The notes under the pieces were generated by a model that saw only the letters and a program-made list of their open reading frames with translations, was not told the DNA's origin and ran no database searches. Positions 7,670 to 56,312 of a stretch of DNA of 64,000 nt are shown here, in pieces. This DNA is from Alphaproteobacteria bacterium. GTDB taxonomy: Bacteria; Pseudomonadota; Alphaproteobacteria; CACIAM-22H2. The position numbers and the translations under genes are program-made. Position 1 is the first letter of the stretch, and each line of letters begins with the position of its first letter. The DNA lies in contig WGNX01000005.1 of the NCBI GenBank assembly GCA_016124335.1, positions 475,524 to 539,523 of the forward strand, in the 5' to 3' direction.

Positions 7670-8691
7670 CAGGCCAGCGCCGCCCGGATCGCGGCGGCAT
7701 CGAGGCCCTTGCGCCCGATGACGACGATGCGGCTCGTGCGCGGTTCGTCCTTTGCCCAGGCGCGGTCGAAATAGCGCTCGATGCGCGGGCCCACGGCCTG
7801 CACGGCAAGCCGCATCGGCTTGCCCGGCACGTCGAGAAAACCCTTCGCGCGCAGCACGTCGTGCCGTTCGATCGCCGCGCGCAGGCGCGCCTCGAACGTG
7901 TCGGGATCGGCGATCGTTCCGGGCTCGACGACGAAGCTGTCGAAATCGTCGTGATCGTGTTCGCCTTCGGCATCGGCATGGCTCGGCCGCGTGGCGAGAT
8001 CGTCCTCGGCGGCGGCATCGATCCCCAGCAGCACGTCGAGCGGCACGTCGCCGTGCGAAGCGGCTACGAGCTTGGCGCCGCCTCGCAGCTTTGCGGAAAT
8101 CTCCCCTTCGACGCGCCGGCGCGTGGCGTTGTCCAGCGCATCGGCCTTGGTCAGCAGGACGAGATCGGCGCAGGCAAGCTGGTCGGTGAAGACTTCCTCG
8201 AGCGGATTGTCATGGTCGAGTGCGGGATCGGCGGCGCGCTGGGCCGCGAGCGCATCCTCGTCGTCGGCAAAGCGCCCGGAGGCGAGTGCCGGGCCGTCGA
8301 CCAGCGTCACGACGCCATCCACCGTCGCGCGCGCCTTCACGCCCGGCCAGTTGAATGCCTGGACGAGCGGCTTGGGAAGGGCGAGGCCGGACGTTTCGAT
8401 GACAATGTGGTCGAGCGCCGGCTCGCGGGCAAGCAGCGCTTCGAGCGTGGGCAGGAAATCGTCGGCGACGGTGCAGCAGATGCAGCCGTTGGCAAGTTCG
8501 ACCACGTCGCCGGGCGCGCAGGCGTCCTCGCCGCAGCCAAGCATGATTTCGCGGTCCATGCCCAGCGCGCCGAATTCGTTGATGACGAACGCGATACGCC
8601 GGCCGTTCGCCCGCTCGGCGATGCGGCGTAGCAGCGTCGTCTTGCCCGCACCCAGAAAGCCGGTCACGACGGTGGCGGGAACCTTCTTCAT
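7669..8691 (-). CDS. cobW: Cobalamin biosynthesis GTPase/metallochaperone CobW
   Basis: ORF 7669..8946 trimmed to MKKVPATVVTGFLGAGKTTLL (P-loop). GCICCT metal motif and a His/Asp-rich stretch HADAEGEHDHDD. ATGA overlap with the cobP stop. Confidence 0.85.
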   Translation of the reverse strand: MKKVPATVVTGFLGAGKTTLLRRIAERANGRRIAFVINEFGALGMDREIMLGCGEDACAPGDVVELANGCICCTVADDFLPTLEALLAREPALDHIVIETSGLALPKPLVQAFNWPGVKARATVDGVVTLVDGPALASGRFADDEDALAAQRAADPALDHDNPLEEVFTDQLACADLVLLTKADALDNATRRRVEGEISAKLRGGAKLVAASHGDVPLDVLLGIDAAAEDDLATRPSHADAEGEHDHDDFDSFVVEPGTIADPDTFEARLRAAIERHDVLRAKGFLDVPGKPMRLAVQAVGPRIERYFDRAWAKDEPRTSRIVVIGRKGLDAAAIRAALA

Positions 8692-9254
8692 TTCTTCGGT
8701 CCTTTCAGGAAGATCGGCAGGCCGGCAGCAACGAACGCCACACGGGCGGCGACGGCGCCCACGGCCTGATGGAGACGGCCTGCATGATCGCGGAAGGCAC
8801 GCGCGAGCGCGTTGTCGGGCACGATGCCGAGGCCGACCTCGTTGGAGACGAGCACGACCGGGCCCTTCGCGCGCTTCAGCGCCTTGCAGAGCAAATCGGT
8901 TTGCGCCGCGACGTCGCGCCCGGCGGCCAGCAGGTTGGACAGCCACAGCGTCAGGCAGTCGACCAATATCGGCGCGCCGGGGCGTGCATGCGCATCGATC
9001 GCGGCAGGAAGCTCAAGCGGGATTTCGAGCGTTGTCCATGCGGTACCGCGTCTTGCGCGATGCATGGCGATGCGCGTGCGCATCTCGCGATCGCCGGCTT
9101 CGGCCGTCGCCATATAGAGTGCCTTTGATTTGCCGCGCGCGAGGCGCAGCGCTTCGGCTTCCGCGAACGCGCTCTTGCCGGAGCGGGCGCCGCCCAGCAC
9201 CAGCACCACCGTGTGTCGTTTGCCCGCGCTATGCGCGGACGTTCGGCCGGCCAT
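8688..9254 (-). CDS. cobP: Adenosylcobinamide kinase / adenosylcobinamide-phosphate guanylyltransferase (CobP/CobU)
   Basis: ORF 8688..9410 trimmed to MAGRTSAHS. P-loop VLVLGGARSGKSAFAE. First gene after the B12 riboswitch, with a GGGAGGAA RBS upstream. Confidence 0.85.
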   Translation of the reverse strand: MAGRTSAHSAGKRHTVVLVLGGARSGKSAFAEAEALRLARGKSKALYMATAEAGDREMRTRIAMHRARRGTAWTTLEIPLELPAAIDAHARPGAPILVDCLTLWLSNLLAAGRDVAAQTDLLCKALKRAKGPVVLVSNEVGLGIVPDNALARAFRDHAGRLHQAVGAVAARVAFVAAGLPIFLKGPKK

Positions 9255-9299: not shown

Positions 9300-9540
9300 T
9301 TGCAAGACACCGAAGTGCGCATCGCACGGCGATCCGGGAGGTCTCCTGGCTCGGGGTCGACGGCCTGCCGCCCGGCCTTCCCGGCGTGCATTCGCACGGA
9401 CCAGTGGCACGGGATGGGCGGCGGGCCTTGCCCTTACAGTTGCGGGGGCAGCGCCGGTTTGGCGTCGGACGAACCGAATTGTCGGTTTGCCCGGCGATTC
9501 ACCGGACTTCCCTGTCCGGACGCGGTGACGTTAGTATCAC
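9300..9540 (-). promoter_or_regulatory. Cobalamin (B12) riboswitch leader of the cobP-cobW-cobN-cobO-cobQ operon
   Basis: The reverse complement contains the canonical elements in order: GGTGATAC...CAGGGAAGTCCGGTGAATCGCCGGGC, GCTGCCCCCGCAACTGTAAGGGC, GCCACTGG, CCGGGAAGGCC, and the B12 box AGCCAGGAGACCTCCC (plus-strand 9333-9350). Confidence 0.85.
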
Positions 9541-35781: not shown

Positions 35782-35857
35782 GGGGCCATAGCTCAGCTGG
35801 GAGAGCGCCGCAATGGCATTGCGGAGGTCAGCGGTTCGATCCCGCTTGGCTCCACCA
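35782..35857 (+). tRNA. tRNA-Ala (anticodon GGC)
   Basis: Hand-folded cloverleaf: acceptor GGGGCCA/TGGCTCC with the G3:U70 Ala identity pair, D-stem GCTC/GAGC, anticodon stem CCGCA/TGCGG with loop ATGGCAT, T-arm AGCGG-TTCGATC-CCGCT, and an encoded CCA. Confidence 0.9.
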
Positions 35858-44973: not shown

Positions 44974-45300
44974 CTAGAAGTCGACCTTGCCGCCGGCAAG
45001 GAAGATGGTCAGCAGCGCTTCGATTTCCTTGTCGGCCGGCTTGCGCAGATCCCACTTGCCCGCGACGAACCCTTCGCCCGCGCGCACGATCGTGCCGCGC
45101 CCGCGCACTTCGACCGAGCCGCGGTCCGAACGGATGCCGAGAACCACGTCGAACGGCGTCTCGAGCGGCGACCAGCCGGTCTCGGCCTTCGCGCGCCAGC
45201 CGTTGCGGCTCCAGTCGACGAGTTCGTAGCCTTCGCCGTCGACGAGCAGCGTGCCCTTCAGCACGCCGTAGCGGGTCTGTGTCCGTTTTTCTTCGCTCAT
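44974..45300 (-). CDS. Stand-alone PilZ domain protein (putative c-di-GMP receptor)
   Basis: 108 aa. RxxxR (RTQTR) followed 18 residues later by DxSxxG (DWSRNG). Confidence 0.65.
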   Translation of the reverse strand: MSEEKRTQTRYGVLKGTLLVDGEGYELVDWSRNGWRAKAETGWSPLETPFDVVLGIRSDRGSVEVRGRGTIVRAGEGFVAGKWDLRKPADKEIEALLTIFLAGGKVDF

Positions 45301-46341: not shown

Positions 46342-48213
46342 ATGGACGCAAAACCGGGCCCCGATCTCGAGCGCATGCGGCATTCCTGCTCGCACGTGCT
46401 CGCGGCTGCCGTACTGAAGCTTTTCCCCGACGCGAAGCTGGGCGTGGGCCCGGCGACCGACACCGGCTTCTATTACGACATCCAGACGACGGTCCCGCTG
46501 ACGACCGAGGACCTGCCGAAGATCGAAGCGGAAATGCGCAAGATCCGCGAGCGCAAGCTGCCGCTCGTGCGCAGCGAAGTGCCGGTCAAGGATGCGGTCG
46601 CGTTCATGGAAAAGACAGGCCAGAGCTTCAAGGTCGAACTGCTCGAGCTTCTCGCCACGCGCGGCTCGACGGCGGCCAAGGGCCTCGACGATCCCAATCT
46701 GGTCGATGCGGGTGCGGGCGGCGTTTCCAGCGTGTCGTTCTACACGCTTGGCGACTTCACAGATCTTTGCCGCGGCCCCCATGTCGAGCACACGGGCCAG
46801 GTGGGTGCCTTCAAGCTCACCAAGCTTGCCGGCGCCTATTGGCGCGGCGATTCGCGCAATCCGCAGCTGACGCGCGTCTACGGCACCTGCTGGGCCAACG
46901 AGCAGGACCTGAAGGCGTATCTGCATCGCGTCGAGGAGGCCGAGAAGCGCGATCACCGCAAGCTCGGCGCCGCGATGGGCCTTTTCCATCTTCAGGAAGA
47001 AGCGCCCGGCACGGTGTTCTGGCATCCCAAGGGCTGGACTCTGTTCCGCACGATCGAACGCTACATGCGCACGCGCCTCGAGGCCGACGGCTATGTCGAG
47101 GTGAAGACGCCGCAGCTGGTCGACCGCGTGTTCTGGGAAAAATCAGGGCACTGGGCGAACTATCGCGACGCGATGTTCGTGGCCAAGCCAGGCAAGGAAG
47201 GCGAGGAGGAAGACCGTCTCTACGCCATCAAGCCGATGAACTGCCCGGGCGCGGTGCAGATCTTCCGGCAGGGGCAGCGCAGCTATCGCGAACTGCCGCT
47301 GCGGCTGGCGGAGTTCGGCGCCTGCCACCGCTATGAACCTTCTGGTGCCTTGCACGGCATCATGCGCGTGCGCGCCTTCACGCAGGACGACGCGCACATC
47401 TTCTGCACCGAGGACCAGGTGCCGGCGGAATCGCGCAAGTTCTGCGACCTGCTGCGCGTCATCTACAAGGATTTCGGCTTCGCCGACCTGCTGGTGAAGT
47501 TCTCCGACCGGCCCGAACTGCGCGCGGGTTCCGACGAGACATGGGACAAGGCCGAAGCCGCGCTGGAGGCGGGTTCGAAGGCCGCGGGTCTCGAGACGAT
47601 CCGCAATCCGGGCGAAGGCGCGTTCTACGGTCCCAAGCTCGAGTTCGTGCTGCGCGATGCCATCGGCCGCGACTGGCAGTGCGGCACGCTGCAGGTCGAT
47701 TTCGTGCTGCCCGAGCGGCTGGATGCAAGCTTCATCGGCGAGGACGGCGCCAAGCACCGCCCGGTGATGCTGCATCGCGCGATCCTGGGATCGTTCGAGC
47801 GCTTCATCGGCATCCTGATCGAGAACTATGCCGGCCGCCTGCCGACATGGCTGGCGCCGATCCAGGCGCGCACGGTGCCCATCGCCGACCGGCATGCCGA
47901 ATTCGCGCGCGAAGTCGCGCGCCGGCTGATGGCAAGCGAACTGCCGCAGACCGACGGCGGCATCCGCGTCGACGTGGACGATTCGACCGAGCGCATGCAG
48001 AAGAAGATCCGCAATGCCCAGCTCGAGCAGATCCCCTACATGCTGGTGATCGGCGACAAAGAGCAGGCCGAAGGCCGCGTGGCGGTGCGTCTGCGCTCGG
48101 GCAAGGATCTCGGCTCGATGGCGATCGAGGATGTGATCGCGCGCATCAAGGCCGAAGTCGGCACGCGCACCGACATCGTCGAGCCAGCGGCGGAAACGGC
48201 GAAAACGACCTGA
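46342..48213 (+). CDS. thrS: Threonine--tRNA ligase lacking the N-terminal TGS domain
   Basis: ORF 45649..48213 trimmed to MDAKPGPDLERMRHSCSHVLAAAV. Editing-domain motifs HSCSH and DLCRGPHV. Class II core RDHRKLG...FWHPKG. C-terminal anticodon-binding domain. The editing HxxxH sits at residue ~13 instead of ~70. Confidence 0.9.
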   Translation: MDAKPGPDLERMRHSCSHVLAAAVLKLFPDAKLGVGPATDTGFYYDIQTTVPLTTEDLPKIEAEMRKIRERKLPLVRSEVPVKDAVAFMEKTGQSFKVELLELLATRGSTAAKGLDDPNLVDAGAGGVSSVSFYTLGDFTDLCRGPHVEHTGQVGAFKLTKLAGAYWRGDSRNPQLTRVYGTCWANEQDLKAYLHRVEEAEKRDHRKLGAAMGLFHLQEEAPGTVFWHPKGWTLFRTIERYMRTRLEADGYVEVKTPQLVDRVFWEKSGHWANYRDAMFVAKPGKEGEEEDRLYAIKPMNCPGAVQIFRQGQRSYRELPLRLAEFGACHRYEPSGALHGIMRVRAFTQDDAHIFCTEDQVPAESRKFCDLLRVIYKDFGFADLLVKFSDRPELRAGSDETWDKAEAALEAGSKAAGLETIRNPGEGAFYGPKLEFVLRDAIGRDWQCGTLQVDFVLPERLDASFIGEDGAKHRPVMLHRAILGSFERFIGILIENYAGRLPTWLAPIQARTVPIADRHAEFAREVARRLMASELPQTDGGIRVDVDDSTERMQKKIRNAQLEQIPYMLVIGDKEQAEGRVAVRLRSGKDLGSMAIEDVIARIKAEVGTRTDIVEPAAETAKTT

Positions 48214-48404
48214 TGCGGATGATTTTGCGGCTTTGGGCGTGGCGGTGAAATCCATGCAGCCAAAACGGGAATTTTTGCGGCAGCTTTTCAAGTGACTTAG
48301 CCGTTTCAAACGATTTTCCCGATCATCGTTAAGAGGCCGCTAACGCCTGTGGCCATAACTTGCGGACTGGGGGCGGACCGCCCTCACATGGACCGGAGTG
48401 CGTC

Positions 48405-49439
48405 GTGGCCGAAGTGCTGCCCAACGAATCGGCGGGAAGCGAAAAGACCGACGCGAAAGACGCGAAGGCGCCGTCGCCGGGCGCCGAACTTGAGGCGCCG
48501 GTCCGCGAGGCCGCGCGTCCGCGCACGTTCGAATTCGCGCACAAGGTCTTCAAGGTCGACAAGGGAATCTTCCGCATCGACCCGACCGACGACAAGCCGG
48601 TCTATTGCGTGGATCTGGGCGACGTGCGCGCAAGCCTCACCTTCGCGACCCTCAAGCACTCGTTCGGCATCGACGAAAAGCATCCCGACTTCGCGATGCT
48701 CGACGAGATCAAGCGCGCGCTCGAAATCATTCCGCAGATCCGGCCGGGCGATTCGATCCCCAGCGAACTGCTCGACGGCACGGCTTCGTGGAAGGTGGAA
48801 GAGCGTCACCGCACGGTCGCGCGCGGGCGCATCTGGTTTGCGCTCGTCGCGTGGGTCGCGGGCACCAAGCCCAGCGCCAAGGTCGACATGCAGGAATTCG
48901 CCACGCTGGCCCAGTCGCCCGACGCGCGCGCGCGCGTGCAGTCGGCCTTCGGCCAGCTCGCCGAGAAGCTCGGCTATCCACCCGAAAGGCGCGCCGACGT
49001 GGTCGAGCAGGTCGAGCGCCTTATCGACGAGGTTTCCTATATCGAGGCGTTGCGCGAGCGCGTGGGCGCCGCGCGAAACGTGATCAATACGCTCAAGCGG
49101 TTCCGCCAGGCCTTCCGGCGCGAACGCACGCTGGCCGAGGAAGTCGACCGCACGATCCTTCTGGGCGAGAAGCCCGTGATCGGCCTCGAACAGCAGCTCG
49201 GCGCGGTCGATACGCGGCTGGGCGACACGTTGGCGGTGCTGCGCGAATTGCCGCAGCAGGTCGAATTCATCCGCCGAACGCGCGATGCGATCCACGCCCA
49301 GATGATGAAATGGGACAAGCTCGTCGCGGTCTGGGAAGGCGCCGGAAACGCGCCGGGCGAGGAAACGCACAAGCTGGTCCGCGAGACCTACCGTTTCGTG
49401 GCGCGCCATTTCCCGATTGCAAGCTCGTGGCAGCGATGA
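48405..49439 (+). CDS. Hypothetical protein, paralogue A of an uncharacterised pair
   Basis: ORF 48360..49439 (TTG). Preferred start is the GTG at 48405, with GGAG 6 nt upstream. High GC3 by eye. Collinear with the next gene over about 290 aa. I recognise no domain. Confidence 0.7.
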   Translation: MAEVLPNESAGSEKTDAKDAKAPSPGAELEAPVREAARPRTFEFAHKVFKVDKGIFRIDPTDDKPVYCVDLGDVRASLTFATLKHSFGIDEKHPDFAMLDEIKRALEIIPQIRPGDSIPSELLDGTASWKVEERHRTVARGRIWFALVAWVAGTKPSAKVDMQEFATLAQSPDARARVQSAFGQLAEKLGYPPERRADVVEQVERLIDEVSYIEALRERVGAARNVINTLKRFRQAFRRERTLAEEVDRTILLGEKPVIGLEQQLGAVDTRLGDTLAVLRELPQQVEFIRRTRDAIHAQMMKWDKLVAVWEGAGNAPGEETHKLVRETYRFVARHFPIASSWQR

Positions 49440-49518
49440 ATTCGACCGGTCCGGCTCCGCGTGGTCGCGGCTTGGCGCATGGCGGTGCGGCAGGCTAAGA
49501 TGAAAAAAAGTCACTGAG

Positions 49519-50541
49519 ATGCCTGTCGCGGAACTGCGGAGCGCCGACTTGACCGAAACGGAAGGCCATAACGCCGACGGCCGCGAACTGATGGCCAACG
49601 CGCCGCGCAAGGCCGCGCCTGCGCGCCGCTTCGACTTCGCGCACAAGGTGTTTCAGGTCGAAGGCGGCCTGTTCCAGCCCGATCCGCAGACCGAAGAACC
49701 GGTGTTTTCGGTCGACATGGGCGAATTGCGCGCGAACCTGACGTTCACTTCGGTGCGCACGGCCTTCGGCATCGCGCCCGACGATCCGGACTCGAAGCTT
49801 CTCGACGAAGTGGGACGCGCGCTCGCCTATGTGCGCCGGATCCGGCCGGGCGATGCGATCCCGAGCGAACTTCTCGACGGGACGGCATCGTGGCGGATCG
49901 ACGAGCATCATCGCGCGGCCGCCCGCGGGCGCATCTCCATCGGGCTCGTCGCGTGGATGTCGGGGCGCGGCAGCGTGCAGAACATGAGCACGCTCGAGCT
50001 TGCCAAGATCGCCGACGATCCGGAAACCAAGGCGCGCGTGCAGCAGGCCTTCGGCAAGCTTGCCGACGATCTGGGCCTGCCGGCGGACAAGCGCGGCGAC
50101 GTCGTCAAGCAGATCGACAAGCTGGTCGACGAGCTTGCCTATATCGAGGCGCTGCGCGAAAACGTGGCGCGCGCGCGCCGCGTGCTCGAAACGCTCAAGC
50201 GCCTGCGCGCGGTCTACAAGCGCGAGCGCGGCGTCCACGACGAGATCGAACGGACGGTGGCGCTGTCCGAGCCGCCCGTCCACAAGCTCGAAATGCAGCT
50301 CACCGAGGTCGACGCGCAGTCGGGCGAGACGGCAAACGCGCTGCGCACCCTGCCGCGCCAGATCGCCTTCATCCGCGAGGTGCGCGACCGCCTGCATTCG
50401 CAGATGATGAAGTGGGACGACATCCTGGAAGCCTGGCAGGGCGTGACGGCCGAGCCGTCGGCCCGCATCCAGAAGCTCGTTCGCGACACCTACCGGTTCG
50501 TGGCGCGCCACTTCCCGGCCGAATCCGAGTGGGTGCGCTAG
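49519..50541 (+). CDS. Hypothetical protein, paralogue B of an uncharacterised pair
   Basis: 340 aa. Shares FDFAHKVF, IRPGDAIPSELLDGTASW, YIEALRE, MMKWD and TYRFVARHFP blocks with paralogue A. Confidence 0.7.
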   Translation: MPVAELRSADLTETEGHNADGRELMANAPRKAAPARRFDFAHKVFQVEGGLFQPDPQTEEPVFSVDMGELRANLTFTSVRTAFGIAPDDPDSKLLDEVGRALAYVRRIRPGDAIPSELLDGTASWRIDEHHRAAARGRISIGLVAWMSGRGSVQNMSTLELAKIADDPETKARVQQAFGKLADDLGLPADKRGDVVKQIDKLVDELAYIEALRENVARARRVLETLKRLRAVYKRERGVHDEIERTVALSEPPVHKLEMQLTEVDAQSGETANALRTLPRQIAFIREVRDRLHSQMMKWDDILEAWQGVTAEPSARIQKLVRDTYRFVARHFPAESEWVR

Positions 50542-50545
50542 CCGC

Positions 50546-51877
50546 ATGGTCGGCGTGAAGCAGGTCGAACGAAAGAAGCTCTCGCGCGAGGAGCTCGTCA
50601 AGCGCGTGGCCGCGCACGAGCGCTTCCTGAAGAAGCTGACGGGCGGGCAGCGCCTGCAGGTCAATTTCTGCGTCATCCCGCGCAACGACTTCTTCGAGCG
50701 CAACCTGACCGAAGCCGAACTTGTCGGCGCCGACCTGACCGAATGCGATTTCAGCCGCGCCAACCTCGCGCGCGCGAACCTGTTCGGCGCCAACCTGACG
50801 CATGCCTGCTTCGCCGACGCGAACATGACCCGAGTGGACCTTCGCGGCGCGATGCTGAAGGGAGCCAATCTCGAAGGCGCCGACCTGACGCGCGCGGACA
50901 TCCGCGACGGTTTCCTCGTCACCGCCAACGAGAACGGCGAACTCGACTACGCGGTCGTCACGACGCAGAAATCGACGATCGACGGGGCGAAGTTCGGCGG
51001 CGCCAACCTGGGCGAGGCGCGGCTCGGCCGCGTGATGGGCCAGTCGACCGATCTCACCAACTGCAACCTGCGCGGCGCCAACCTTGCCGGCGCGGACCTT
51101 TCGAATTCGAACCTGTCGGGCGTGGTGTTCACGGGTGCCGACCTTTCCGACGCGAACCTGTCGGGTTGCCGGCTCAACGGGGCGGTGCTGGTGGGCGCCA
51201 TCATGGCGGGCGCCAATCTCGAAGGGGCCGATCTGTGCGCGTGCCATTTCGTCGTATCCGAGATGGAAAAGTGCGACCTGTCGCGCGCGGTGCTGCCGCG
51301 CACGCTTGCCGATATCGGCATGTCGTTCGGCGACATGGTCGTTTCGCACAACGACTGGCTGCGCACCGGCGGCACGCAAGGCCAGCAGATCGCGATCGAC
51401 GGCGTCGATCTGGGGCCCATCGAATGGCCGGGCGTCACGCTCTCGGCGGCCAAGCTCCAGCGCGTCACGCTGGTGAACGCAAAGTTCCCTTCGGGCAGGT
51501 TCGACATGTCGAACCTGGAAGGTTCGATGCTGGCGGGCGGCGACTATTCCAACGCCACGCTGCGCGGTGCCAACCTGCACAAGGCCGTGCTCGACGGCGC
51601 CAAGTTTGCCGATGCCGATTTCTCGCCGCTGCCGCTGGCCGGCGTGGCGAACACCAAGTGGCCGGCCCGGCTCCAGGGCGTTCGCGCGCACAAGACCGAT
51701 TTCCGCGGCGCCGACCTGCGCGGCGCCGACTTCACCGAATCCTCGCTGCGCGATGCCGATTTCCGCGGCGCGGACCTGACGGGCGCAAGGCTGGTCGACA
51801 GCGACCTGACCGGCGCAGACATGCGCGAGACGAAAACCGCCGAAGCGGATATGCGCGGCGTCATCGGGCTTAAATAG
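50546..51877 (+). CDS. Pentapeptide-repeat protein (443 aa, two tandem modules)
   Basis: ATG 4 nt after the stop of paralogue B. Long runs of A(D/N)LxX pentapeptides, for example GADLTECDFSRANLARANLFGANLTHACFADANM and FRGADLRGADFTESSLRDADFRGADLTGARL. Confidence 0.85.
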   Translation: MVGVKQVERKKLSREELVKRVAAHERFLKKLTGGQRLQVNFCVIPRNDFFERNLTEAELVGADLTECDFSRANLARANLFGANLTHACFADANMTRVDLRGAMLKGANLEGADLTRADIRDGFLVTANENGELDYAVVTTQKSTIDGAKFGGANLGEARLGRVMGQSTDLTNCNLRGANLAGADLSNSNLSGVVFTGADLSDANLSGCRLNGAVLVGAIMAGANLEGADLCACHFVVSEMEKCDLSRAVLPRTLADIGMSFGDMVVSHNDWLRTGGTQGQQIAIDGVDLGPIEWPGVTLSAAKLQRVTLVNAKFPSGRFDMSNLEGSMLAGGDYSNATLRGANLHKAVLDGAKFADADFSPLPLAGVANTKWPARLQGVRAHKTDFRGADLRGADFTESSLRDADFRGADLTGARLVDSDLTGADMRETKTAEADMRGVIGLK

Positions 51878-51899: not shown

Positions 51900-52388
51900 C
51901 TACACGCGCCGGGGGGCGGGCCCCAGCCGGCGCTTCTCGACCGTGAAGGTGCGCGTGGCCGAGGTCGGCCGGCTGACGATCGGCTGGCTCAGGCCAAGCC
52001 TGTCGGCATCCGGACGCAGGTGCGCGGGCACGGGACCGCCATCCTTGGGCGCGGACGCGCGCGCGGGCCTGCGGCCCTTCGTGCCGGCCGGCTTCTTGGG
52101 CTTCTTGGGCTTCACGTCGGCGAAGCGCACTTCGATCTTGCGCTCGCCCACCGTGCTGCCGTCGAGTGCGGCGATCGCGGCCTTGCAATGCTGCTCGGTC
52201 GCCATCGTGACGAAGCCATAGCCGATGGGCTTGCCCGTCGCGGGGTCGGTTGGAACCTGCGCGCCGATCACGATGCCGTGCGCATCGAAGATATCGGCGA
52301 GCTTCTCGGCATCGAGCCCGAAGGGCACGTTGCCGACGAAAAGGCGCGTGTTGTAGGTCTTGGCCGGCGCAACGGCTGTTTTCGGCAT
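51900..52388 (-). CDS. RRM (RNP-1/RNP-2) RNA-binding protein with basic C-terminal extension
   Basis: ORF 51900..52463 trimmed to MPKTAVAP. RNP-2 RLFVGNVPF and RNP-1 KPIGYGFVTM. Lys/Arg/Pro-rich tail of about 70 aa. Confidence 0.8.
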   Translation of the reverse strand: MPKTAVAPAKTYNTRLFVGNVPFGLDAEKLADIFDAHGIVIGAQVPTDPATGKPIGYGFVTMATEQHCKAAIAALDGSTVGERKIEVRFADVKPKKPKKPAGTKGRRPARASAPKDGGPVPAHLRPDADRLGLSQPIVSRPTSATRTFTVEKRRLGPAPRRV

Positions 52389-52666
52389 CTTCCAGTCCCC
52401 GGACAACGTCGGACACCTGGTGCCCGACGCACGAATGGCAGTTTGAACCGAACGCCCGTTCACGGCCTAGGGGAAACGCTGGCCTCAGACCTGCTATTCC
52501 CGCATGGCGACGCGTGCGGCGACGTGCAGGCTCGGGCCGTGCAATTCCCCTTCCAACCCGCTCTATGCCGCCGATTTGCGGCAACACGATGACACGGACC
52601 AACACTTGAAATTATTCGGTGCGCCGGCTTAGCCTCTAGCCGCAACGGCAGTCCACGGCGGGCGAT

Positions 52667-53068
52667 TTGTTCAAGAAATTCCGGGCATTGGTAATCGACG
52701 ACGACAGTACGACGCGGCTGATGCTGCGCCAGATGCTCGAAACGCTGGAGTTTGCCTCCGTCGATACCGCGGCGGGCGCCGAAGGGGCCAAGCAGGCCTT
52801 CCAGACCACGCCCGACGGCTGGCCGGACGTTCTGCTGTGCGACATCAACATGAAGCCGACCAGCGGGCTGGAGTTCGTCGCGTGGATGAATTCGCAGCCG
52901 AAGATCGCGGCGCGCGCGGTTCCGGTGGTGATGGTGACGGCGCATTCCGATGCGCCCATCGTGCGTCGGGCGATGGAGCTGGGCGTGGCGGGTTACCTGA
53001 TCAAGCCCGTGCAGCCGCTGGCGCTGCGCACGCGCATGGAGCGTGCCCTGTTGCCGCGAATGCGCTGA
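52667..53068 (+). CDS. Single-domain CheY-like response regulator receiver
   Basis: 133 aa with a TTG start. Acidic pocket ALVIDDD, phospho-acceptor LLCDINMKP, and conserved Lys in GYLIKP. Confidence 0.8.
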   Translation: MFKKFRALVIDDDSTTRLMLRQMLETLEFASVDTAAGAEGAKQAFQTTPDGWPDVLLCDINMKPTSGLEFVAWMNSQPKIAARAVPVVMVTAHSDAPIVRRAMELGVAGYLIKPVQPLALRTRMERALLPRMR

Positions 53069-53069
53069 G

Positions 53070-54518
53070 CTACGCGAAGACCCGCACCAGCCACAGTGCC
53101 AGGCCCGGGAACGCCAGGACCAGCGCCAGCCGGATCACGTCGGCCGCCAGGAAAGGCAGCACGCGCGCATAGGTGCGGGTGATCGGCACGTCGCGTGCGA
53201 TCGACGAGATGACAAAGACGTTGAGCCCGATGGGCGGTGCCGTCAGGCCGATGCCGACCACGATCAGCACGAGGATGCCGAACCAGATCGCCACGTCGTC
53301 GGGCGACATGCCGAAATCCAGCGCCTGCACGATCGGGAAGAAGACCGGCAGCGTCAGCAGGATCATCGCCAGTTCGTCCATCACCGCGCCGAGGAAGATG
53401 TAGATCACCATCATCGCCACGACGATGAGGTAGGGCGAAACGCCAAGCCCGCCCACGGCCGAGGCGACGAAATCGGGCAGCTTGGCCAGCGCCAGGAACG
53501 CGCCGAACACCTCGGCCCCCAGAAGGATCATGAAGATCATGCCCGAGGTCTCGGCCGTCTGCCGGATCGCCTCGCCGATGTCGCGCCAGCCCAGCGTGCG
53601 CTGCGAGAGACCCACCGCCAGCATCGATATCGCGCCGACCGAAGCCCCTTCGGTCGGCGTGAAGATGCCGCCATAGATCCCGCCCACGACCACGACCGCC
53701 ACGGCGATCGCCGGCAGCACGCTCACGTCGACGATGGCGACGATGACGCCACCCGCCGCGATCGTGAGCGCGAAATCGATGTCGACCGTGTCGCGCGCGA
53801 ACAGCACGCCCGCCAGCGCCACGATCGCCGCCCCCGCCGCGCGCGGCCATTTCGCCGTGGAAGCCGGCGGCCCGCTCGTGCCTGCCGCCGCGGCCGAAGG
53901 CGCCAGCGCGGGTTCGCGCCGGACGACCAGTGCGATGGTGATGCAGTAGAAAAGCGCTGCCATCAGGCCGGGGATCAGCGCGGCCTGGAAGAGCTTGGCG
54001 ATGTTCTGCTCGGTCGTGATCGCGTAGACCACGAGGATGACCGAGGGCGGGATCAGGATGCCAAGCGTGCCGCCCACCGCGATCGTCGCGGCCGAGAAGG
54101 CGCGGTCGTAGCCGTAACGGTCAAGCTCTGGCAGGGCCGCGCGCCCGAAGGTCGCGGTCGTGGCGACCGACGAGCCGCAGATCGCGCCGAAGGCCGTGCA
54201 CGCGCCGATCACCGCCATCGCGAGCCCGCCGCGCAATTTCCCGAACGCGCGCTCGGACGCGCGGAAGAGCGAACGCGCGATGCCCGCGCGCTCGGCCAGT
54301 GCGCCCATCAGGATGAAGAGCGGGATGACCGACAGCGTGTAGTTGGCGAACTGGTAGAACGTGTTCGTCTTCATGTAGGCGAAGAACGCGTGCCAGCTGG
54401 TGATCATCGTGTAGCCGGCACCGCCCACCACGAGCATGGCAAGCCCGATGGGTGCGCGCAGCGCGATCAGCCCCAGCATCGCAAGGAAGCCGATGGAGGC
54501 GAGCGTGGCGCCGGTCAT
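53070..54518 (-). CDS. dctM: TRAP transporter large permease (DctM family)
   Basis: ORF 53070..54908 trimmed to MTGATLASIGFL. Polytopic. ATGA overlap with the dctQ stop. Confidence 0.85.
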   Translation of the reverse strand: MTGATLASIGFLAMLGLIALRAPIGLAMLVVGGAGYTMITSWHAFFAYMKTNTFYQFANYTLSVIPLFILMGALAERAGIARSLFRASERAFGKLRGGLAMAVIGACTAFGAICGSSVATTATFGRAALPELDRYGYDRAFSAATIAVGGTLGILIPPSVILVVYAITTEQNIAKLFQAALIPGLMAALFYCITIALVVRREPALAPSAAAAGTSGPPASTAKWPRAAGAAIVALAGVLFARDTVDIDFALTIAAGGVIVAIVDVSVLPAIAVAVVVVGGIYGGIFTPTEGASVGAISMLAVGLSQRTLGWRDIGEAIRQTAETSGMIFMILLGAEVFGAFLALAKLPDFVASAVGGLGVSPYLIVVAMMVIYIFLGAVMDELAMILLTLPVFFPIVQALDFGMSPDDVAIWFGILVLIVVGIGLTAPPIGLNVFVISSIARDVPITRTYARVLPFLAADVIRLALVLAFPGLALWLVRVFA

Positions 54519-55036
54519 TTGCCGCGCACCGCGATCAGGACGGCGGTCGCGACGCTCGTGGCCGCGACGAGCGCGCAGAGCACCGAACTTGTCGCGATGA
54601 AGGGCCACATCTGGAGCTGGAGTTCCTGCGTGGTCTCGTAGTTCTCGCGCGCGTCGATGGCGCCGAGGAACAGCCCGTAGGCGGCGAAGGCCATGAAGGC
54701 CGCGTAGACGATGTCCCAGAACGCGTCGATGAAACCGAGCGTGCGCGGCCCGAGGCCTTGCGTGAACGTGTCGACCATGATGTTCCCGCGGCGGACCTGC
54801 GTATAGGGCATGTACGCGAAGACGCCGATCGCCGTGGCGATGCGCACGAATTCGAAATCGCCGGTCACGGGCTTGTAGAAGATCCAGCGCCCCAGCACGC
54901 TCGTGCACACGAGCAAGGCGATCGCGAGCGCCAGAATGCCGCCCAGCAGGGCCGAAAGGCCCAGCAGGCGGTCGAGCAGCCGGTCGATCCCGCTGGCGGG
55001 CCCGGCGGCGGGCGGGGAGGGCGCGTCGCTGTTCAT
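54515..55036 (-). CDS. dctQ: TRAP transporter small permease (DctQ family)
   Basis: 173 aa with four TM segments, positioned between dctP and dctM. Confidence 0.75.
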   Translation of the reverse strand: MNSDAPSPPAAGPASGIDRLLDRLLGLSALLGGILALAIALLVCTSVLGRWIFYKPVTGDFEFVRIATAIGVFAYMPYTQVRRGNIMVDTFTQGLGPRTLGFIDAFWDIVYAAFMAFAAYGLFLGAIDARENYETTQELQLQMWPFIATSSVLCALVAATSVATAVLIAVRGK

Positions 55037-55091
55037 CGGCGGACTTTACCCGTGTTCTCCGGCGCGAGGAACGGCGACGCGCGCAGCCCGG

Positions 55092-56138
55092 TCAGGCGTT
55101 GGCGTGCTTGGCGAGGAGCGACTTCATCGACGCGATGAGCTTGGCGCCGTCGATGTTGCGGCCCTTCATCTGCTCCACCCAGTCGGTCGTGACGTGCGCG
55201 GTCGCCTTGACCCAGCGCGCCTTCTCTTCCTCGGTGATCGTCGTGATGACGTTGCCGCGCTCCTTGACCATGGTGGACACGGTCTTGGCCTCGGTGTCCC
55301 ACATGTTGCCGGCAAGCTTGGCGAAGGCCGGGCCGGAGGTGTCGTCGATCACCTTCTTCAGTTCGCCCGGCAGGCCCGCGTACTTCTGCAGGTTCATCGC
55401 CAGGAAGAAGCCGGCCGTGTAGAGCGTGGGCGAGCCCGGGATGGCCGTGTGGTACTTGCACAGTTCCTGGATGCGCACGGCCGGGACGACTTCCCACGGC
55501 ACGACCGCGCCGTCGATCACCTTCTGCGCGAGGCTTTCGGCGATCTGCGGCACCGGCATGCCGACCGACGTTGCGCCCAGCGCCTTCAGCGCTTCGCCGG
55601 TGAGGCGCGCGGGGTTGCGCAGCTTCATGCCGCGCAGGTCTTCCATCGTCTTGACCTGCTTGGTCGAATGGATGAGGCCCGCATCGTGCGCCCAGAAGCA
55701 GAGCAGCTTCACTTCCTTGGTTTCCTCGCCAAGATTGGCGCGCCCGAATTCCTCGCACGCCAGCGCGTTCACGATGCCGCGCGTGTTGGCGATGAAGGGC
55801 ACCTCGATCGTCTCGGTGATCGGGAAGCGGCCGGGCGTGTAGCCGGGCAGCGTCCACACGATATCGACCACGCCGTCGCGGGCCTGGTTGTAGAGCTGCG
55901 GGGGCGTGCCGCCGAGCTGCATGCTCGGGTAGATCTCGATCTTGATCGCGTTGTTGCTGGCCTTGGCGACGATGTCGGCCCAGGGGGCAAGCATCTTGGC
56001 GTGGCCGTTGGATTGCGGCGGCAGGAAGTGGTGCAGGCGCAGCGTGACGGCCTGTGCCGAGGCCGGGCGGACGATCGCCGGGGCCGCGAGGAACGTGCCG
56101 ACGGCGGCGGCAGTCGTGAGGAATTGACGGCGCTTCAT
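55092..56138 (-). CDS. dctP: TRAP transporter substrate-binding protein (DctP family)
   Basis: ORF 55092..56261 trimmed to MKRRQFLTTAAAVGTFLAAPAIVRPASA (Tat-like signal). DctP-type length and sequence. Confidence 0.85.
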   Translation of the reverse strand: MKRRQFLTTAAAVGTFLAAPAIVRPASAQAVTLRLHHFLPPQSNGHAKMLAPWADIVAKASNNAIKIEIYPSMQLGGTPPQLYNQARDGVVDIVWTLPGYTPGRFPITETIEVPFIANTRGIVNALACEEFGRANLGEETKEVKLLCFWAHDAGLIHSTKQVKTMEDLRGMKLRNPARLTGEALKALGATSVGMPVPQIAESLAQKVIDGAVVPWEVVPAVRIQELCKYHTAIPGSPTLYTAGFFLAMNLQKYAGLPGELKKVIDDTSGPAFAKLAGNMWDTEAKTVSTMVKERGNVITTITEEEKARWVKATAHVTTDWVEQMKGRNIDGAKLIASMKSLLAKHANA

Positions 56139-56312
56139 CTCTGAGTTCCTCCCTTTTTGGGATATCCGGCGGTCCCGGCGTGGGCCGGACCGCTTCTGTT
56201 CGTTCGATGGGCGCGAAGCTAGCATAGCGCAGGGGTAGTGCAAACGACCCGCACCCTGCATACACTTGCACTATTCAGGGTTTCGCTTGCACAAATCGAG
56301 GAATTCGCACGC

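Follow-up and report, generated by a model that had tools for sequence, protein, structure and literature searches.

What do the three co-directional genes that follow thrS in this DNA do, and do they belong together? In the 64,000-nucleotide (nt) stretch analysed here (hereafter the window; positions 475,524 to 539,523 of contig WGNX01000005.1, assembly GCA_016124335.1, Alphaproteobacteria), two paralogues, A and B, are followed by a gene for a large pentapeptide-repeat protein (PRP), and an earlier interpretation made from the letters alone (the sequence-only reading) had proposed that A, B and the PRP form an undescribed module. All three open reading frames (ORFs) were confirmed on the + strand (Table 1; related loci are labelled L001 and so forth). 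As far as sequence comparison goes, A and B are soluble, tandemly arranged paralogues from an undescribed family that is confined to Rhodospirillales-like Alphaproteobacteria, and the three-gene cassette, judged by gene order, is a Tagaea-specific elaboration and not a general module, with a downstream partner that is tightly coupled yet exchangeable. The newness is confined to the protein family and its predicted fold, and a new kind of system is not demonstrated. The observations of the sequence-only reading are confirmed and its interpretation is partly supported, the arrangement being a genus-level one.

A and B share 52% identity over 320 amino acids (aa; E=2e-122), so that their paralogy stands. 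Both were compared with Pfam-A, NCBIfam and PADLOC, and 47 diverse family members were run against Pfam only. No Pfam threshold was reached by A, B or any of the 47 members, the best match (Rx_N, E=0.036) lying far below the cut-off, while for A and B NCBIfam returned only coiled-coil SMC/Rad50 noise and PADLOC just a weak coiled-coil LmuB row (E=0.004, 13.5 bits). Rx_N, T2SSK, SMC/Rad50 and LmuB were consequently rejected as relatives, all being sub-threshold coiled-coil noise. The precomputed Pfam fields were empty for all of the at least 350 homologues listed, whose source names read 'hypothetical protein' save for one evidently spurious ParE label, and an exact look-up of the window B protein (P0001) gave no record.

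The family comprises 633 clusters or representatives at 50% identity (316 of them with E<=1e-30), with more than 543 loci in species-representative genomes and more than 466 in metagenomes, the latter scanned with family alignment A4. Its hosts include Tagaea, Azospirillum, Nitrospirillum, Niveispirillum, Skermanella, Arenibaculum, Telmatospirillum, Roseospira, Thalassobaculum, Nisaea, Stellaceae and Sneathiella, and all members are single-domain proteins of approximately 320-360 aa. An alignment of 47 sequences, with pairwise identity down to 35%, displays 24 invariant and 22 nearly invariant positions, which cluster in the loop IRPGDSIPSELLDGTASW (written in general form as PGDxIPxE-L/I-LDG-T/S-ASW) and in the helical motifs YIEALRER, IRExRDxLH and TYRFxAR. 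The 24 invariant residues are retained by all paralogues, and distant subfamilies keep the same conservation pattern.

The AlphaFold model of B, built on the family alignment, has a predicted local distance difference test score (pLDDT) of 87.3 and a predicted TM-score (pTM) of 0.84, and describes a small N-terminal alpha/beta domain (approximately residues 25-115), followed by the invariant loop and a bundle of long helices (119-321). With this model, the best Foldseek matches had E=0.26 in PDB and E=0.15 in BFVD, none reaching the limit of E<=0.001; the rows for the pore-toxin proteins AhlC/SmhB, for TorS and for the VirB5/VirB6 stalk (8rt9) had TM-scores of 0.1-0.26 and were discarded. Comparison of the family profile with PDB sequences gave nothing below E=0.014, the top match being the helical cytoplasmic domain of methyl-accepting chemotaxis proteins (MCPs; 2ch7/3ja6) over about 130 helical residues. 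The 17.6 bits of this four-helix-bundle match include 11 bits of composition bias and are backed neither by Foldseek nor by the MCPsignal Pfam model, and the match was treated as coiled-coil noise. CheZ (PF04344) is likewise a helical-bundle cytoplasmic protein, and CheZ-like genes adjoin the family gene in two lineages; however, hhalign of the family alignment against the neighbouring CheZ proteins gave a profile-profile probability of 0.2%, and homology to CheZ was rejected. Since both the library and the fold searches were empty, the statement of the sequence-only reading that A and B could not be placed in any family is correct with these tools too. With more than 1000 loci, a confident predicted structure, sharply conserved motifs and no relative in the libraries searched, the family represents a sizeable piece of genomic dark matter.

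Neither A nor B contains a hydrophobic stretch resembling a transmembrane segment (maximal Kyte-Doolittle mean over 19 residues of 0.84 and 0.53, respectively), a hydrophobic head or a signal peptide, and a motif check found no Walker A and no other nucleotide-binding or metal motif in them, as had largely been read from the letters. The ratio of nonsynonymous to synonymous substitution rates (dN/dS), calculated with the orthologues of L001, the most closely related locus, was 0.21 for A, 0.20 for B, 0.13 for the PRP gene and 0.11 for thrS, and these low values indicate that A, B and the PRP gene are genuine constrained genes. There was no sign of gene conversion between A and B, given that the DNA identity of the paralogues is just ~74-78% in the best stretch. 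Regarding their starts, an in-frame TTG at 48360 would extend A to 359 aa, and the public gene call of a protein identical to B (P0001, 330 aa) begins 10 codons downstream.

How general the cassette is was assessed with maps of 79 genome loci. The order thrS, Acetyltransf_6 gene (-), two or three family genes, PRP gene, RRM gene (-) and a gene for a response-regulator receiver (REC) protein was found in one Tagaea clade only (L001-L009), whose PRPs are 82-91% identical to that of the window. At the junction between B and the PRP gene, the TAG stop codon (50539-50541) is followed by CCGC and then by the ATG of the PRP gene, which leaves the 4-nt spacer noticed in the sequence-only reading; the corresponding gap is approximately 8-41 nt in nine related genomes. 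In a sister Tagaea clade (L011-L013, L081), two family copies are followed by a gene for a 756-aa HisKA-HATPase-REC hybrid kinase (9049-11319 in L081) in the PRP slot, the flanks of both slots being the same, with the family pair 5' and the RRM gene 3'.

At least two distinct paralogues were present in all 12 related genomes whose contig spans the locus, and their retention fits a non-redundant or heteromeric function. In a neighbour-joining tree, the thrS-locus copies form one clade consisting of three orthogroups, X, A and B, with X as sister to B; orthogroup X is absent from the window, L001, L002 and L008, and A and B are always retained. The same Tagaea chromosomes carry a separate 'core' copy, located between genes for a 2-hydroxyacid dehydrogenase and SppA (thrS-locus and core pairs on one chromosome are, e.g., L004/L031, L008/L035 and L011/L014), and in the tree this core copy clusters with the genes of other genera that have just one copy. 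A tandem pair independent of these, made up of deeply diverged members, was also seen in an unrelated alphaproteobacterial metagenome-assembled genome (L017, 8773-10939), between a PtsP-like gene and ahcY with a PAS histidine kinase gene.

The direct succession of thrS and A, for its part, is shown by alignment with the relatives to be a peculiarity of the window genome. In every related genome, thrS and the first paralogue are separated by the minus-strand Acetyltransf_6 gene and a 62-64-aa ORF, and the window has lost approximately 1.1 kb, equivalent to L001 7627-8727, which carries the Acetyltransf_6 (FemAB-like) gene and the small ORF; in tblastn, the Acetyltransf_6 protein matched L001 at 7815-8717(-) and had no match anywhere in the window. 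Window positions 48266-48700 are 77% identical to L001 8728-9152, and the upstream region of A is hence conserved. The spacer after thrS is indeed AT-richer than its surroundings, as the sequence-only reading had it (GC of 0.545-0.58 across 48100-48399 vs ~0.66), and only the adjacency to thrS is particular to this genome.

Across the family as a whole, 16 of 163 loci have a PRP gene no more than 3.5 kb from the family gene; these belong to three lineages only, Tagaea among them, and the 1.03 Mb of farther flank contain none. Outside Tagaea, nearby PRPs of the ~420-475-aa type were found in Thalassobaculaceae (five loci, including Nisaea) and in a Niveispirillum-like lineage (two loci), the Thalassobaculaceae order being CheZ(-), family gene, an optional methyltransferase gene(-), PRP gene and MmcB-like gene. 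The PRP and MmcB-like (PF06319) genes overlap by 4 nt in L068, L074, L077 and L078 and are separated by 13 nt in L093, with the CheZ-like gene divergent from the family gene there. Roughly 90% of the 163 loci hold a single family copy and no PRP gene, and PRP genes were absent from 80 metagenome loci of distant subfamilies. Clustering of the ORFs around 79 genome and 49 metagenome loci revealed no universal conserved neighbour; the neighbours of single-copy members vary, with uvrA/trmFO in Sneathiella, pepN in Skermanella, an ABC ATPase gene and FeoB in Nitrospirillum, an FAD oxidoreductase gene in Azospirillum, and pepA and others elsewhere. From the opposite direction, four contexts of PRP homologues were checked, those of the nearest relatives from other clades (45-46% identity) among them, and none contained a family member close by. 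Because the PRP gene is near in 16 of 163 loci, in separate lineages and never in the far flank, the linkage is regarded as real but facultative. For the proposed module this means that the B-PRP coupling is conserved in nine genomes and recurs as proximity in two other lineages, but the three-gene order is confined to one Tagaea clade, and PRP adjacency, although found, is not kept across the range of the family.

These data bear directly on the possibility that the synteny is accidental or a relic, the function of the family being unrelated to the PRP, the PRP an independent gene, and the tandem copies a recent lineage-specific duplication. The prevalence of single-copy loci lacking a PRP gene, the unrelated contexts of the closest outside PRPs and of other alphaproteobacterial ~420-aa PRPs, and the kinase occupying the PRP slot in the sister clade are all in keeping with it, as is the situation in Thalassobaculaceae, where the PRP gene is coupled to the MmcB-like gene, not to the family gene, and a convergent methyltransferase gene often lies between. 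However, PRP adjacency recurs in three separate lineages, the B-PRP gap is tight across the clade and tightest in the window, and the A and B orthogroups have long been kept apart under purifying selection. On balance, we hold accidental synteny to be possible, if rather doubtful.

The neighbourhoods of the family also contain several hints of a signalling role. A GGDEF protein gene lies directly 5' of the family gene in 11 marine loci, and an EAL-like gene is found upstream in L045, L049 and L062; genes for REC and REC-PAS-GGDEF-EAL proteins are located immediately 3' and convergent in L131 and L155. In L149 and L156, the order is CheZ, a 17-nt gap, family gene, OmpR-type regulator and kinase; moreover, CheZ genes are divergent from the family gene in the five Thalassobaculaceae loci and CheA genes in L042 and L048. 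Further signalling neighbours comprise the hybrid kinase or REC genes in Tagaea and MCP or kinase genes in several singletons. A PilZ-like gene lies directly 3' of a family paralogue in L025 (14 nt), L036 and L052. The window likewise encodes a PilZ-like protein, 34-37% identical to the homologues in those three loci; its match to Pfam PilZ is sub-threshold and found in the homologues only (E=0.03 and 0.1).

In the seed searches, the density of signalling genes is 0.70 per 10 kb up to 2.5 kb from the family gene vs 0.37 per 10 kb beyond that distance. CtrA-like boxes, defined as TTAA-N7-TTAA with at most one mismatch, precede the family gene in 25 of 148 loci, compared with 35 of 772 AT-matched upstream regions elsewhere (odds ratio 4.3), and the box of the window is conserved in L001. 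Motility is under CtrA control in many Alphaproteobacteria (PMC3692519). Additionally, within L004-L010, the relatives that keep orthogroup X conserve the block TTAAnTrCACGTAAAGAT-N8-YTAGGCTCG upstream of X, and this block could be a regulator site or promoter. Taken together, the signalling and CtrA statistics suggest an enrichment of about two-fold.

In view of these associations, the explanation that we favour, with a probability of roughly 40%, is that the family consists of non-secreted adaptors or regulators in a signalling pathway, that A and B are non-redundant, and that the PRP or the kinase serves as an output or docking partner. A second Tagaea locus acquired two to three diverged copies (X, A and B), with the core copy staying elsewhere. 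According to the proposal, the family proteins would attach to two-component, chemotaxis or cyclic di-GMP (c-di-GMP) circuits, possibly under CtrA control, through contacts made by the helical bundle and with the invariant loop as the binding site for a ligand or partner. The Tagaea A and B proteins, long retained and non-redundant, would in the simplest form constitute a hetero-oligomer, and the downstream gene, probably translated together with B in the case of the PRP, would supply the exchangeable output or docking partner: the PRP here, and the hybrid histidine kinase in the sister clade.

A more ambitious version of this proposal appears unlikely to us: a signalling adaptor of a new class and with a new fold (e.g., CtrA-regulated and linked to c-di-GMP or chemotaxis) whose PGDxIPxELLDGTASW loop would bind a ligand or partner, and whose Tagaea hetero-oligomer would recruit a two-lobed PRP scaffold. 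Were it true, the ~420-475-aa alphaproteobacterial PRPs would for the first time have a defined partner and role. A true signalling link would by itself add a previously unrecognised component to two-component, chemotaxis or c-di-GMP circuits, including those of plant-associated Azospirillum and Nitrospirillum, and would offer a handle on the role of the large alphaproteobacterial PRPs. If the link is false, the family nevertheless remains well suited to a new DUF entry, and is an example of lineage-specific paralogue expansion with an exchangeable downstream partner.

Several observations weigh against the adaptor proposal. The enrichment of signalling genes is only about two-fold, and none of the CtrA boxes is perfect; furthermore, the nominal P values of both statistics are too optimistic because the loci are phylogenetically non-independent and, for the signalling density, also because some seeds were drawn from neighbours. 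No partner gene is family-wide, many loci have housekeeping neighbours only (uvrA/trmFO, pepN, pepA, 2-hydroxyacid dehydrogenase, SppA, FeoB), and the high proportion of single-copy loci without a PRP gene speaks against its module aspect in particular. No sigma-70 consensus promoter and no + strand intrinsic terminator that would define the transcript were found at the locus. In soil and peat metagenomes (L090, L091, L094 and L095-L125), moreover, a large subfamily of ~356-360 aa consistently has a gene for a secreted PF26795 (DUF8265) protein downstream of it. Stop and start codons of this pair sometimes overlap and a secreted Sel1-repeat protein flanks it, an arrangement that fits ill with a purely cytoplasmic signalling role. 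Finally, the abundance of polar residues (D, E, S, H, R) among the invariant positions would be as fitting for an enzyme as for an adaptor.

The last point leads to the possibility that the family proteins are enzymes of unknown activity, with the invariant acidic/Ser/Trp loop and the His and Arg residues of the bundle as active site, and with paralogues diverged in substrate. The conserved polar residues D81, E107, D110, S114, H121, E195, E200, R203, R276, R279, D280, H283, Y315 and R316 would be compatible with catalysis. However, no catalytic family was matched by sequence or fold, the nucleotide-binding and metal motifs looked for are missing, no metabolic neighbourhood is conserved, and the mostly helical-bundle architecture of the model is typical of binding proteins. 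An enzymatic function consequently strikes us as distinctly unlikely.

Any role assigned to the cassette must also accommodate the PRP itself, for which the sequence-only reading had assumed a quadrilateral beta-helix. The protein matches PF00805 with E=9.9e-68 over 9 stretches, PF13599 with E=1.9e-33 and PF13576 with E=1.3e-29, and A(D/N)LXX repeats cover most of its length. Its AlphaFold model (pLDDT 90.8) displays one short strand per five residues and resembles, at a Foldseek probability of 1.00 and E values from 4e-12 to 1e-7, the solved structures of HetL (3du1), Np275/276 (2j8k), QnrB1 (2xtw), MfpA (2bm5/6zt4) and AlbG (2xt2). We infer that the fold is the predicted right-handed quadrilateral beta-helix, in agreement with that assumption. 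The solved proteins share the tandem repeats and the beta-helix with the window PRP, but comprise only ~130-240 aa; the window protein, in contrast, has 443 aa and is modelled as two modules, in each of which a quadrilateral beta-helix comes after a cap helix (residues 14-28 and 261-273), with a beta-hairpin insert at approximately residues 122-141. A conserved motif of His and Gly is present in each of the two cap regions (H24...G33-G34 and H268xxW271...G276). The scores against NCBIfam models fall below the cut-offs for Qnr (89 bits, cut-off 240), MfpA (68 bits, cut-off 360) and HetL (NF047416; 166.9 bits, cut-off 260). For the Alr5209-family model (NF052603, cut-off 125 bits) the score was 169.6 bits, but the model has 113 positions, about a quarter of the protein length, and the total adds up 5 distinct repeat stretches, which looks like repeat inflation rather than equivalence. 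The protein falls within a widespread and unstudied group of alphaproteobacterial PRPs of ~420-475 aa, and its membership of the topoisomerase-protecting Qnr/MfpA proteins was rejected, as its scores are below those cut-offs, its length contrasts with their ~180-220 aa, and it is mildly acidic with a net charge of just -6 (isoelectric point 5.7).

These properties also limit a DNA-related role, in which the PRP would be a DNA mimic acting on a topoisomerase or repair enzyme, as do MfpA, Qnr and AlbG, with the family proteins regulating it. The mycobacterial mfp operon, a 'conservon', encodes the PRP MfpA together with the GTPase MfpB and the regulators MfpC/D/E (PMC3575795, PMC9769811, PMC11343762), and MfpA requires its operon partners (PMC3575795, PMC7980463). 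With its PRP at the operon end and upstream products thought to be regulators, it is the best precedent for a PRP acting with co-encoded partners. Support for a DNA-related role would come from the structural match of the PRP model to QnrB1, MfpA and AlbG, from the MmcB-like DNA-repair gene directly after the PRP gene in Thalassobaculaceae, and from uvrA 5' of the family gene in Sneathiella. We found no paper joining the pentapeptide repeat with MmcB, and the Tagaea papers found were taxonomic or community surveys. Nevertheless, A and B lack the GTPase (Walker A), Roadblock/LC7 and sensor-kinase features of the mfp products, the PRP belongs to another size class, being more than twice as long as the Qnr/MfpA proteins, and lies far below the Qnr, MfpA and HetL cut-offs, its acidity is mild, no gyrase link is seen, and no MmcB-like gene adjoins the window PRP. 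We therefore regard a DNA-related role as improbable.

The least tenable reading, that of mobile-element cargo or of an anti-phage or toxin system such as a tripartite alpha-pore-forming toxin (AhlABC, SmhABC), would draw on the two to three tandem helical-bundle paralogues of ~330 aa rich in long helices, the very weak Foldseek rows for AhlC and SmhB, and the weak LmuB row, but it is effectively refuted by Foldseek probabilities <=0.06 with TM-scores of ~0.1, by the missing hydrophobic head and secretion signal, by the lack of a PADLOC family match, by the single-copy state in most genomes, by a GC content like that of the surroundings, by syntenic, vertical inheritance between thrS and the RRM gene in all relatives, and by the absence of repeats, integrase or tRNA adjoining the locus.

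Table 1. Coordinates of the cassette, its spacers and selected neighbouring genes in the window.
Feature	Position (strand)	Description
Deletion junction	48192..48265 (.)	74 nt without counterpart in L001, by blastn of window 47800-48700 vs L001, L004 and L008
A upstream region	48266..48404 (+)	AT-richer part of the spacer; one-mismatch CtrA-like box TTAAGAGGCCGCTAA at 48329-48343
Paralogue A	48405..49439 (+)	ATG start, 344 aa; equals database protein P0038; motif PGDSIPSELLDGTASW at 48744-48791
A-B spacer	49440..49518 (+)	79 nt; no + strand terminator-like site
Paralogue B	49519..50541 (+)	340 aa; motif PGDAIPSELLDGTASW at 49846-49893
PRP gene	50546..51877 (+)	443 aa
RRM-domain protein	51900..52463 (-)	Convergent with PRP gene across a 22-nt gap; flank kept in all related genomes; context only
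Single-domain response-regulator receiver protein	52667..53068 (+)	~2.1 kb 3' of B; conserved across the PRP-bearing Tagaea clade; context
PilZ-like protein	44974..45300 (-)	108 aa; RxxxR and DxSxxG motifs; context

As for the surroundings of the cassette, an Rfam scan found no RNA family within 48-52 kb, and the sole matches in the window, both unrelated to the cassette, were a cobalamin riboswitch at 9339-9513 (-) with 69.8 bits and a tRNA gene at 35782-35854 (+). The RRM_1 protein encoded downstream of the PRP gene has 187 aa and a basic C-terminal tail, and it occupies the same position in all Tagaea-type loci, the kinase-bearing ones included; the gap between both genes contains the short GC hairpin CGGGC-CGAA-GCCCG. 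On the 3' side of the REC gene lies a tripartite ATP-independent periplasmic (TRAP) transporter operon of the DctM/DctQ/DctP type (53070-56261, -), which is conserved in L080.

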